A stretch of DNA of 16,650 bases. Origin: a virus. Its lineage: Duplodnaviria; Heunggongvirae; Uroviricota; Caudoviricetes. Positions within the stretch are counted from its first letter, which is position 1; each line of letters begins with the position of its first letter. Positions 7,337 to 13,880 of the stretch are shown here, piece by piece. Made by a program: the position numbers and the translations under genes. Below the pieces are notes generated by a model. The model ran no database searches, was not told the origin of the DNA, and saw only the letters and a list, made by a program, of their open reading frames with translations. The stretch covers positions 1 to 16,650 of IMG/VR virus record IMGVR_UViG_2737471869_000028; one strand, given 5' to 3'.

Positions 7337-7807
7337 ATGACAAAATCATGGAGCGTACCTTTTCCTGAATCAGAAACTGAACATGATGGAATGCCTGTTT
7401 TCTGGAGATTCCAGGCGACAGTTGAAGAAGATGGGATAAAAATATTCGCACTTCAATATATAGCTTTTCATCAGACAGAGCATTATGCATGGTTGGTTCC
7501 TGCGCATTGGATTGTTAATTTTAAACCAGCACCAAATCAGTGGTTACAGGAATGGAAACAAAGGAGAAATAGATATGCAATTAAGAAAGTAGCAAAAAAT
7601 GCAGAAAGATCTTTTGCATTCCCAACGAAGAAACTTGCCATTGAAAGTTTATTGCGCCGGAAGAAATACCATTTAATGAGAATCAAACAAGATTTGGCTG
7701 TTGTATCAACTCTTGTTGATGGTATGAAGAATATTGATACATCAACACCAGATATTGAATATAACTTTGGACACAACCAAGAAACAGAAAATTGGGTATT
7801 TTATTAG
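7337..7807 (+). CDS. Hypothetical protein (156 aa), AT-rich accessory gene immediately downstream of N
   Basis: ORF with GAGGTGA Shine-Dalgarno; no recognisable motif; occupies the ral/sieB-like position of the pL operon; composition looks AT-rich by eye. Confidence 0.5.
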   Translation: MTKSWSVPFPESETEHDGMPVFWRFQATVEEDGIKIFALQYIAFHQTEHYAWLVPAHWIVNFKPAPNQWLQEWKQRRNRYAIKKVAKNAERSFAFPTKKLAIESLLRRKKYHLMRIKQDLAVVSTLVDGMKNIDTSTPDIEYNFGHNQETENWVFY

Positions 7808-11414: not shown

Positions 11415-11780
11415 ATGGCACTGACGAAAAAACAACGTGCAGAGCTGCGCATGAAGTTCGGCGGTCGCTGTGCTTATTGCGGCTGCGAACTTCGCGAAAA
11501 GTGGCATGCAGACCATGTAAAACCGGTCATTCGTTTTGCTGGAAATATGCTTCACCAGGAACGTGACGATATATCCAACATGGTTCCGGCATGCCACCCA
11601 TGCAATCTGCACAAGCATTGCAGTAGCCTGGAAGATTATCGGCGAATTATCAGTGATGGGCGTCGTGAATTCCTTGCGTCCGGGAAAGGCAAAGCGCTGG
11701 TTCGTATGGGATTGGTTGAAATGAAATCTGACCCGGTTGTGTTCTGGTTTGAAAAATATCAAGAAGGGGCTACGGCATGA
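11415..11780 (+). CDS. HNH endonuclease-family protein (122 aa from the internal ATG)
   Basis: CAYCGCEL...WHADHVKPV...NMVPACHPCNLHK gives the Cys-rich HNH motif; AAAGGAG Shine-Dalgarno before the ATG at 11415; the track ORF start at 11253 lies inside the Ea22-like gene. Confidence 0.75.
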   Translation: MALTKKQRAELRMKFGGRCAYCGCELREKWHADHVKPVIRFAGNMLHQERDDISNMVPACHPCNLHKHCSSLEDYRRIISDGRREFLASGKGKALVRMGLVEMKSDPVVFWFEKYQEGATA

Positions 11781-12463
11781 CCACTATTACCAAAGAACGC
11801 CTGCTGACAATCCAGCAGTGGCGCGAAACATATGGACTGGGTAGCAACGTTGTACTGCCAGCAGAAGAAGCGGAAGAACTGGCACGAATTGCGCTGGCAT
11901 CGCTGGAAGCGGAGCCTGTTGCTTATATTTTCAAACATCCGGCCGGGAAATTATTCTGGGCTTTAACAGATGAAAGCAATAAAGAGCAAGCGGACGTTAT
12001 TCCTGTTTATGCTGCCGCGCCTGCGTCGGTTGTGCCGGATAATGCATCAGAGCCTCTTGCTTATGCTTACAAAGAGCTTACGCCTGAGATTATGCGCAAC
12101 CATTTAGCTGTATTCGAGCGATATGGAATAGCCCCAAACGATAGCTCTACCACAATTCAGGCACTGCGAATCGCGCTGGATGGTATAGAGCGGAGCGACG
12201 CCATGCTTCATGGTGCCGAACCTGTAAGCCAAACTTACAAGTTTCCAGTTAATACACCTTGCCAAGATGCGCCAGCCCATATCTGGCTGCAAACAGCTGG
12301 AGTATGGCCAGAAGATGGCGAGTTGAGCGAATTAACGTGGTGCAGCCACAATCAGCACCATGATGACACGCTATATGTTCGAGCTGACTTGGTAAATGGC
12401 AATTCTCCGGTAACTCCGGATGGTTGGATAAGCTGTAGTGAGCGAATGCCAAAAGATGGTTAG
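11777..12463 (+). CDS. DUF551-family protein, N-terminal 228 aa, ending at an in-frame TAG that interrupts the DUF551 domain
   Basis: ATGA overlap with the HNH stop; the protein ends WISCSERMPKDG at the TAG (12461-12463), and the same frame continues to 12625 encoding the remainder of the DUF551 C-terminal signature. Confidence 0.55.
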   Translation: MTTITKERLLTIQQWRETYGLGSNVVLPAEEAEELARIALASLEAEPVAYIFKHPAGKLFWALTDESNKEQADVIPVYAAAPASVVPDNASEPLAYAYKELTPEIMRNHLAVFERYGIAPNDSSTTIQALRIALDGIERSDAMLHGAEPVSQTYKFPVNTPCQDAPAHIWLQTAGVWPEDGELSELTWCSHNQHHDDTLYVRADLVNGNSPVTPDGWISCSERMPKDG

Positions 12464-12624
12464 CACGTAATTATTTTATGTGATGGCGCATTCGTTCTTT
12501 ATGCGCAATATCGAGACAGTGAGTTTTTTGATGTTGTCCGCAATGGTGAGGAGTTCTTCGAAACGCAGAGCCGCAATGTAACCCACTGGGTGCCGCTACC
12601 GGAGCCACCGCAGGAGGTGAAGTG

Positions 12625-12909
12625 ATGGACTCCTTCGCGAAATATACGATTATTGACTGGATAACCTTCCTTCAGGTTTTGCTCATCTGGTTTTATATGG
12701 CTTACAGGAGTGGACAGTGGATTGTCAGTGTAGCCTGTAGCAAGGGATGGCGTTGGTGGAACAGAAAGAATAAAAAAGCACTGGCATTGGATTCGCTTTA
12801 CGAAGCATTCAATCTTAACAGTCTTCAGCCTGGTTCTGTCATTGTAGTCACCACTCAAAGCGGCATGACGATACAAATTCACAAGCCAAAGGAGGAAGGT
12901 CGTGGCTAA
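12625..12909 (+). CDS. Small membrane protein (94 aa)
   Basis: N-terminal hydrophobic helix (YTIIDWITFLQVLLIWFYMAY); the ATG at 12625 overlaps the TGA that closes the DUF551 reading frame. Confidence 0.45.
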   Translation: MDSFAKYTIIDWITFLQVLLIWFYMAYRSGQWIVSVACSKGWRWWNRKNKKALALDSLYEAFNLNSLQPGSVIVVTTQSGMTIQIHKPKEEGRG

Positions 12910-13012: not shown

Positions 13013-13042
13013 TTGACAAATCCGCATTAACGGGGCTATATT
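13013..13042 (+). promoter_or_regulatory. Sigma70-type promoter upstream of the antirepressor gene
   Basis: TTGACA (13013-13018), 18-bp spacer, TATATT (13037-13042). Confidence 0.5.
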
Positions 13043-13256: not shown

Positions 13257-13880
13257 ATGACCAGTCAACTCATCCCCGTATTCAACGGCACTATCGCCAA
13301 CGAAACAGCCCTACTCTGCAATGCCCGCGATCTGCATGCTTTTTTAGGCGTGAAAAAGGTGTTTGCGGCATGGATTACAAATCGCATTTCAGAATACGAA
13401 TTCATTGAAAATCAAGACTATATTTTGCTTTCCAATTTGGGAAAGCAAACATCTGGTAGAGGCGGTCACAACCGCAAGGATTACCACCTCACCCTCGACA
13501 CAGCCAAAGAACTGGCGATGGTGGAGCGCAACGAAAAAGGCCGCCAGATACGCCGATACTTCATCGAGTGCGAGAAAAAACTTCGCAGCATGCAACCAGC
13601 GCAGCAATTCACAGACGAGGAAATCATCCTCCTTTGCTACATGCAGGTACAGATGGAGAATGCGCAGGACATCTGCAAACGCCTGTACCCGATAATGAAG
13701 GAACTTAACTCATCATACGCGAGTAAGCTGTATGACATTGCGTTTGAAACCTTCTATGCGGTGACGAAAAACAGAGATGTACTGCTCAGGGAGGCGACAC
13801 GACTTGACCAGACAAGCGCCGTTTTCGAACGGGCAAGACCAATGTTAAAAAGCCTTCGGGCGAGACAATTCGAATTTTAA
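13257..13880 (+). CDS. Antirepressor-like protein (AntA/Bro-N-type N-terminal domain)
   Basis: 207 aa; N-terminal region (LLCNARDLHAFLGVKKVFAAWITNRISEYEFIENQDYILL...TLDTAKELAM) has the pattern of phage antirepressor N-terminal domains; AAGGA Shine-Dalgarno; own promoter and terminator. Confidence 0.6.
   Translation: MTSQLIPVFNGTIANETALLCNARDLHAFLGVKKVFAAWITNRISEYEFIENQDYILLSNLGKQTSGRGGHNRKDYHLTLDTAKELAMVERNEKGRQIRRYFIECEKKLRSMQPAQQFTDEEIILLCYMQVQMENAQDICKRLYPIMKELNSSYASKLYDIAFETFYAVTKNRDVLLREATRLDQTSAVFERARPMLKSLRARQFEF

Follow-up and report, generated by a model that had tools for sequence, protein, structure and literature searches.

A premature amber codon within the DUF551 domain of an Escherichia coli lambdoid prophage gene is most probably an inherited nonsense allele

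An in-frame TAG that interrupts a phage gene, with the reading frame intact beyond it, may reflect gene decay, a sequencing error or a stop codon that is read through. The locus described here raises this question for a gene of the DUF551 family. The window, that is, the whole stretch of 16,650 nucleotides that was analysed, was identified by whole-window searches as part of a lambdoid prophage in E. coli, adjoining ybhC on the att-lambda side. It was similar piece by piece to Stx-converting phages and to HK106-, mEp506- and lambda-like phages, and E. coli chromosomes also matched the window up to and including ybhC. The plus-strand genes begin at about position 4241 with cI (Peptidase_S24), followed by a defence-like insert of three genes and by N. 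After N, the plus strand carries RecT, a Gp157-like gene, DUF5405, DUF2737, Ead/Ea22, an HNH endonuclease gene and the DUF551 gene, and then DUF4752, an AntA-like antirepressor, xis, int and ybhC. This gene order (cI, N, RecT, Ead/Ea22 and HNH, continuing to xis, int and ybhC) indicates that the DUF551 gene is a member of the N-antiterminated pL operon and belongs to its exo-xis 'ea' accessory region, between the recombination genes and xis/int.

All the features considered below lie on the plus strand. The upstream HNH endonuclease gene (11415..11780; Pfam HNH, 29.8 bits; phrog_2118, 192 bits; gene call in locus L005) ends in a TGA that overlaps the ATG of the DUF551 gene (ATGA at 11777-11780). 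From this ATG, direct reading and translation gave 228 sense codons ending in ...WISCSERMPKDG, followed by the amber codon TAG at 12461-12463 as codon 229. The truncated ORF (11777..12463) thus consists of a variable N-terminal leader, a conserved central module and the first 12-13 residues of DUF551, which are those just given. Past the TAG, the frame continued for 53 further sense codons (HVIILCDGAFVLYAQYRDSEFFDVVRNGEEFFETQSRNVTHWVPLPEPPQEVK; 12464..12625 with the stop codon), encoding the whole DUF551 beta-strand core and the HW(M/V)PLPEPP signature. It closed with the TGA at 12623-12625, which overlaps the ATG at 12625-12627 of the DUF4752 gene (12625..12909; Pfam DUF4752, 121 bits) in the form TGATG (12623-12627). 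The Shine-Dalgarno sequence of the DUF4752 gene, AGGAGGT at 12612..12618, was read directly 6 nt before the ATG at 12625 and sits within the PQEV codons of the DUF551 tail. The reading therefore agrees with the original prediction, made from the letters of the sequence, that the ORF halts at this TAG, that its frame stays open to 12625 and that the closing TGA overlaps the start of the next gene. The prediction had also held that the frame contains neither ATG nor GTG after the TAG. This was correct in that no canonical start is present near the TAG, but a GTG occurs in frame at 12590-12592, as the Val codon of HWVPLP; because it is 11 codons from the end of the frame, it is irrelevant for re-initiation.

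The open frame itself is only weakly surprising, since the chance of 53 consecutive sense codons is (61/64)^53, or about 0.08. The sequence was therefore judged by its match to the DUF551 profile (PF04448), which has 68 positions and a Pfam gathering threshold of 22 bits. The tail alone matched positions 16-68 with 38.9 bits (E=1.6e-9), and the head alone matched only positions 1-12, with 19.2 bits, which is below the cut-off. The read-through product, in which the TAG is translated as Gln, matched positions 1-68 of 68 in one stretch with 71 bits (E=1.5e-19), through its residues 216-279 (12422..12613), with the TAG inside the match. The stop therefore falls within the DUF551 domain, and it is the profile match, not the length of the open frame, that is the decisive evidence for an interrupted domain; the earlier proposal that the downstream frame encodes the rest of DUF551 was borne out. 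The read-through product, of 282 aa, would read MPKDG-Q-HVIILCDGAFVLYAQYR across codon 229. It passes the family threshold and the encoded 228-aa product fails it, although the NCBI name of the latter is 'DUF551 domain-containing protein' despite its 19.2 bits.

In the AlphaFold model of an intact homologue (P0001), the DUF551 core was formed by five beta strands at residues 229-273 (pLDDT 63-80), and the N-terminal 222 residues were modelled with low confidence (pLDDT below 50). When the domain alone was modelled from the window's own tail, four beta strands were obtained (pLDDT 75). According to these models, the truncation would remove every predicted DUF551 beta strand together with the HWMPLPEPP signature, all of which lie past codon 229; a recent nonsense pseudogene is expected to lose such a conserved structural part, and DUF551 function is presumably lost in the truncated product. 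DUF551 is a portable C-terminal domain of unknown function that occurs in Ea22 variant V2 of Stx phages, in YfdS of CPS-53 and in dATP/dGTP pyrophosphohydrolase fusions (PMC10834534, PMC4776307). No sequence relative of DUF551 was found in the PDB, and PADLOC gave no match. Foldseek with the domain model returned no match at E<0.001, the best hit being a small beta-barrel of Tudor/chromo-like type (E about 1, TM about 0.48), and the PHROGs matches were all listed as of unknown function. A small beta-barrel adaptor that binds protein or nucleic acid would be a reasonable guess for the domain.

The ancestral state of the interrupted codon was examined in homologous loci. Codon 229 was CAG (Gln) in 9/9 loci aligned codon by codon, whereas it is TAG in the window, and Gln was also found at this position in the intact proteins P0001-P0004 and P0006. 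The nearest of these, P0001 and P0002 (284 aa, 96% identical over the full length), read ...SERMPDDGQHVIILCDGAFVLYAQYRDGEFFDVVRNGEEFFETQSRNVTHWMPLPEPPQEV... in this region. The identical local junction CCAAAAGATGGTCAGCACG was present in loci L009 and L010. A pattern search that allowed C or T at the first codon position recovered CCAAAAGATGGT-CAG-CACG, the intact K-D-G-Q junction, from one viral (IMG/VR) contig and one metagenome contig. The presence of CAG in all nine close intact homologues points to a single C-to-T transition, CAG to TAG, as the event; intact homologues thus carry, one step away from the stop, the sense codon expected of a recent nonsense pseudogene. Deamination at a Dcm hot spot was rejected as the cause of the transition, as the ancestral context GGTCAGC is unlike CCWGG. 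Searches of a 15-billion-protein collection, of species-representative genomes and of complete E. coli genomes did not recover the exact CAG parent of this mosaic. Alignment with intact homologues, which had been suggested as a check, showed that they continue past this position with Gln. The possibility that homologues naturally end here and that the downstream frame is unlike DUF551 thus fails on both points, the second through the Pfam match of the tail.

The allele was then located in public data. The public protein collection contains the exact 228-aa truncated product from 37 contigs, in 46 index blocks and under several independent NCBI accessions. On 33 contigs, NCBI assemblies annotated the tail as a separate, adjacent CDS of 51 aa that starts at an ATT (12470) translated as Met, and the head and tail CDSs bore consecutive accession numbers. 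Two loci were 100% identical to the window over long distances, namely L005 (GCA_023641965.1) across 10.9 kb and L018 (GCA_012267355.1) across 13.3 kb. In L018 no protein is recorded for the DUF551 interval, which suggests that some annotations may already treat it as a pseudogene. The tract that carries the TAG was present in 0/5,426 complete RefSeq E. coli genomes, among which the best full-length identity was 97.5%, and in no phage record. The amber allele is rare.

A second truncated protein, P0125, was 250 aa long and had a different N-terminal leader with the same ...MPKDG end. Its partner is a 53-aa tail (P0138), in which the Met of HWMPLPEPP is retained and the last residues are NRG. 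Its loci, L013 (a Logan assembly) and L014 (GCA_012160245.1), represent 7 contigs, and their early region differs from that of the window, with sieB, ral, cIII, kil, Rad52, SSB and Abc2. Positions 11893-12564 of the window were 100% identical to L014 over 672 bp, TAG included; L013 belongs to the same locus. Both flanks of this tract diverge, with five mismatches in 15 bp on the left and five in 43 bp on the right, and homology ends beyond. An identical tract between diverging flanks indicates that the amber allele arose once and then moved between prophages by homologous recombination, as judged from these alignments, and a separate origin of the TAG in the second background was rejected on the same grounds. 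As the allele has persisted after its transfer to a second prophage, any selection against it is at least not strong.

The gene family is modular in other respects, with which the single-origin and recombination reading is consistent. One protein (P0005) joined the exact head of the window to a different DUF551 core, the two having crossed over within the conserved WISCSERMP codons, and two others (P0104 and P0098) carried an unrelated C-terminal domain in place of DUF551 after ...PDGW.

Taken together, we consider it highly probable that the TAG is an inherited amber nonsense allele and reflects the ordinary, recent decay of a dispensable accessory gene of the pL operon. Of the alternatives that the original prediction had left side by side, it is the recent nonsense pseudogene that gained support, from the CAG of the homologues, the inheritance of the allele and the cut through the domain.

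The explanation that survives best beside it is that the gene functions by amber read-through, either by means of a supE-like suppressor tRNA-Gln(CUA), encoded by the host or elsewhere in the prophage, or by basal near-cognate read-through at a TAG that serves as an expression attenuator. We regard this as improbable. A supE or near-cognate tRNA-Gln would restore Gln at the TAG; the ancestral residue is indeed the one that supE inserts, and the downstream frame is fully intact in both TAG-bearing backgrounds. That 53-codon tail bears no second disabling mutation in either background, which fits functional read-through and is equally expected if the mutation is recent. Many bacterial in-frame stops have been argued not to be pseudogenes (Belinky et al., PMC7918605), and stop-codon read-through in E. 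coli reporters amounts to 0.4-2% (PMC10959953). A basal level of this order should yield no more than a trace of full-length protein, and clinical isolates read through less than laboratory strains (PMC10959953).

A source of suppression was sought within the sequence examined, which comprised the window and 7.5 kb to its left on the identical contig L018. The window contained no tRNA, and the 7.5 kb contained only tRNA-Asn(GTT) and tRNA-Thr(TGT), between Q and the holin gene, so a phage-borne suppressor tRNA was rejected for this interval. (Locus L017 was discarded as a leftward extension of the window; it is a different prophage, 98.8% identical, that diverges at window position 945.) TAG is the genuine terminator of a gene at 7337-7807 in the same operon, and a scan with TAG as a sense codon found no other coding-strand gene split by TAG, leaving the DUF551 gene as the sole case. 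Among the 26 ORFs, TGA was used as the stop 16 times, TAA 8 times and TAG 2 times. TAG avoidance with several in-frame TAGs, as recoding would entail, was thus not observed, and the scan and the stop-codon usage together rule out phage-wide TAG recoding.

The stop itself also lacked the features of a programmed one. It was not conserved among homologues, being confined to one identical 672-bp haplotype in two backgrounds and absent from 5,426 complete E. coli genomes, and all other homologues examined have CAG. No stimulatory RNA structure was detected 3' of the stop: fold z-scores were -0.87 (12464-12563), -0.03 (12464-12610) and -1.77 (12440-12520), none of them significant against shuffled controls. 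The sequence 3' of the stop is identical in intact CAG homologues, and Rfam gave nothing at the stop site. In addition, a conserved Met of the tail has become Val in the window lineage, as described below. Scans for tRNAs, stop usage and RNA folds therefore gave amber suppression no positive support within the sequence examined.

A narrower form of this idea is that the amber is a tolerated or even selected attenuator, yielding mostly the 228-aa isoform and a trace of the full-length protein with Gln, and fit enough to spread by recombination between unrelated prophages; this we hold to be quite unlikely. Even less credit can be given to a functional split, in which the 228-aa head acts alone and the tail is translated from the non-canonical ATT at 12470, giving two polypeptides. 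NCBI calls both halves CDSs on 33-37 contigs, and the N-terminal and central modules, which are naturally joined to other C-terminal domains in P0104 and P0098, may act by themselves. Against this, no canonical in-frame start lies near the TAG, no Shine-Dalgarno-like sequence precedes the ATT (the upstream sequence is caaaagatggttagcacgta), and the 51-aa CDS would miss the conserved WISCSERMP part of the domain. The identical sequence in L018, moreover, carries no protein record here, which suggests that the 51-aa CDS call is a homology-driven annotation artefact. Finally, a sequencing or assembly error, in favour of which there is nothing beyond the general prior that single-base errors happen, can for practical purposes be excluded, as the allele is a substitution rather than a homopolymer indel and recurs in several independent assemblies (GCA_023641965.1, GCA_012267355.1 and GCA_012160245.1) as well as in Logan assemblies built from separate sequencing runs; in all, it was seen on 37 plus 7 contigs, which represent two prophage backbones.

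With an inherited nonsense allele as the preferred explanation, the course of events may be pictured as follows. A C-to-T transition would have turned codon 229, CAG (Gln), into TAG in a modular early accessory gene. Ribosomes would then stop at 12463 and release a 228-residue product with the N-terminal and central modules, leaving the tail untranslated save for rare read-through. The DUF4752 gene would probably still be translated, since its own strong Shine-Dalgarno sequence AGGAGGT should make its translation independent of ribosomes crossing the DUF551 frame, and N antitermination should blunt Rho-dependent polarity. The pL operon is repressed in the lysogen, and the 'ea' region of lambda is dispensable for phage growth. 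Because the operon is silent in the lysogen and the region is non-essential, the allele may be effectively neutral, and such near-neutrality would explain its persistence. Homologous recombination would then have carried a copy of it to at least one further backbone. The amber allele would thus represent an early step in the decay of a prophage accessory gene.

The state of the tail and of related loci was inspected for signs of decay. Compared with nine comparator loci, the tail had two changes private to the window lineage, and no further stops or indels. The first, ATG to GTG at 12590 (codon 12590..12592), replaces Met272 by Val; the comparators have ATG in 8/9 and ATA in 1/9 cases. Met272 of HWMPLPEPP is at least 90% conserved, and thus nearly invariant, in an alignment of 63 sequences (A2). 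The second is a synonymous change, CCG to CCA, at 12605-12607. The replacement of Met272 may indicate that constraint on the orphaned tail has relaxed, two events being too few to carry more than that. The mobilome is the gene category in which in-frame stops are commonest (Belinky et al. 2021, PMC7918605). Annotations of the homologues in other E. coli frequently show frameshifts or partial genes: one locus (L004) has a frameshift within the DUF551 domain that gives two overlapping CDSs, and four others (L002, L006, L015 and L016) contain partial DUF551-family pseudogenes.

The allele is of a known kind. Classical amber mutations of phages change CAG to TAG and are suppressed by the supE (glnV) tRNA-Gln(CUA). 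The allele resembles them in being a one-step change at a Gln codon that truncates the product; in a supE host, the wild-type residue would be regained exactly. It differs in being a natural allele of wild E. coli prophages, in a non-essential gene, with no suppressor in the sequence examined and with an ancestral GGTCAGC that is not a Dcm CCWGG hot spot. Stop codons are recoded or read through in other phages, as with TAG-to-Gln in crAss-like and Lak phages and with the extension of the Q-beta coat protein. An in-frame TAG where homologues have Gln, with an open frame downstream, is common to those systems and to this locus. Here, however, the DUF551 gene is the only one affected, and another gene of the operon ends at a true TAG stop. 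Neither a suppressor tRNA nor a stimulatory structure was found in the sequence examined, homologues do not share the stop, and the host, E. coli, uses the standard code.

Compared with portable-domain proteins such as Ea22 V2 and YfdS, the read-through product likewise has a complete C-terminal DUF551 (71 bits). The gene also occupies the exo-xis/ea position beside the Ead/Ea22 gene and shows the mosaic behaviour described for this region (PMC10834534), but the encoded head falls below the family threshold and its domain is split by the stop. The closest parallel to the preferred explanation is prophage gene decay (Belinky et al. 2021, PMC7918605, and Bobay, Touchon and Rocha 2014, cited therein). 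As in that process, an accessory gene carries an in-frame stop, the site is polymorphic for TAG and CAG, and homologous loci are frameshifted or partial. The difference is that the allele can be traced to one 672-bp haplotype in two backbones, which is a small detail and not a new principle.

This stop-bearing haplotype in two prophage backbones is the only mildly instructive feature of the locus. The allele itself can already be found in public annotation, where it appears as two neighbouring 'DUF551' CDSs, and the significance of the result lies mainly there: many NCBI assemblies call both halves 'DUF551 domain-containing protein', and a single pseudogene interrupted by a stop would be a better annotation. 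If read-through were true after all, the gene would be one more example of a functional in-frame stop in bacteria, a class that is itself debated. As an inherited nonsense allele, it would provide a small, clean example of a neutral mutation that persists in a silent prophage operon and hitch-hikes between prophages by recombination at conserved module boundaries.

Homologues of the DUF551 gene were frequently damaged by routes other than the amber codon that interrupts it here (loci L004, L002, L006, L015 and L016). In E. coli UTME-3 (L004, 1501–2347), a frameshift within the DUF551 domain gave rise to two annotated, overlapping CDSs. The other loci, L002, L006, L015 and L016, carried partial or frameshifted pseudogenes as well as internal duplications of the central module, a kind of duplication exemplified by a further homologous locus (L001) and the relative protein P0098. 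In P0098 and a second relative, P0104, the N-terminal and central modules were kept and DUF551 was swapped for an unrelated C-terminal domain (VMVPKEPTQAMIKAW...), with the swap point located directly after the codons for ...PDGW (window 12419–12430). This swap point marks a second boundary between modules, lying a few codons 5' of the crossover in the conserved WISCSERMP codons.

The orphaned DUF551 tail has been annotated publicly as a separate forward-strand CDS of 51 aa (window 12470–12625, corresponding to 6694–6849 of the identical contig L005), which is named 'DUF551 domain-containing protein' and begins at a non-canonical ATT. No Shine-Dalgarno sequence was found for this ATT start (window 12470), and in L018, an assembly of identical sequence, no protein is recorded across the whole interval. 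The separate tail CDS is probably a homology-driven annotation artefact. At the end of the tail, the PEPPQEV codons (12599–12625, forward strand), which are conserved at the C-terminal end in DUF551 genes, include the Shine-Dalgarno sequence AGGAGGT (12612–12618) for whichever gene comes next. This embedded signal may partly account for the conservation of the 12599–12625 DNA and for its role as a boundary of recombination between modules.

On its upstream side, the DUF551 gene adjoins, with a translational overlap, a forward-strand HNH endonuclease gene (11415–11780, 121 aa). Because only the C-terminal part of phrog_2118 was matched (positions 161–275 of 301), the HNH protein may represent either a short version or a homing-type nuclease truncated at its N terminus. 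Further downstream, a full-length match to the sRNA-Xcc1 model (Rfam RF02221; 13128–13217, forward strand) scored 64.3 bits, the gathering score being 53, and was flanked by a near-consensus sigma-70 promoter-like site (13013–13042, TTGACA-18-TATATT) and an AntA/P22_AR_C antirepressor-like gene (13257–13880). In L018, the same prophage carries tRNA-Asn(GTT) and tRNA-Thr(TGT) genes (L018 18683–18838) about 5.4 kb to the left of where the window begins, with the antiterminator gene Q on one side of the pair and the holin gene on the other.

Three overlapping forward-strand genes lie between cI and N (5082–6423), the position occupied by rexAB in lambda. The product of the first is a HigB-like toxin (104 bits in Pfam), which matched PD-Lambda-2_A in PADLOC (141 bits). 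The second encodes a 218-aa HTH protein whose PADLOC match to PD-Lambda-2_B (169 bits) was limited to profile positions 3–125 of 402, and the B component is possibly shortened. The third product (134 aa) matched PD-T4-9_C (PADLOC, 41.6 bits). The trio is likely to be an anti-phage defence or toxin-antitoxin module encoded by the prophage.
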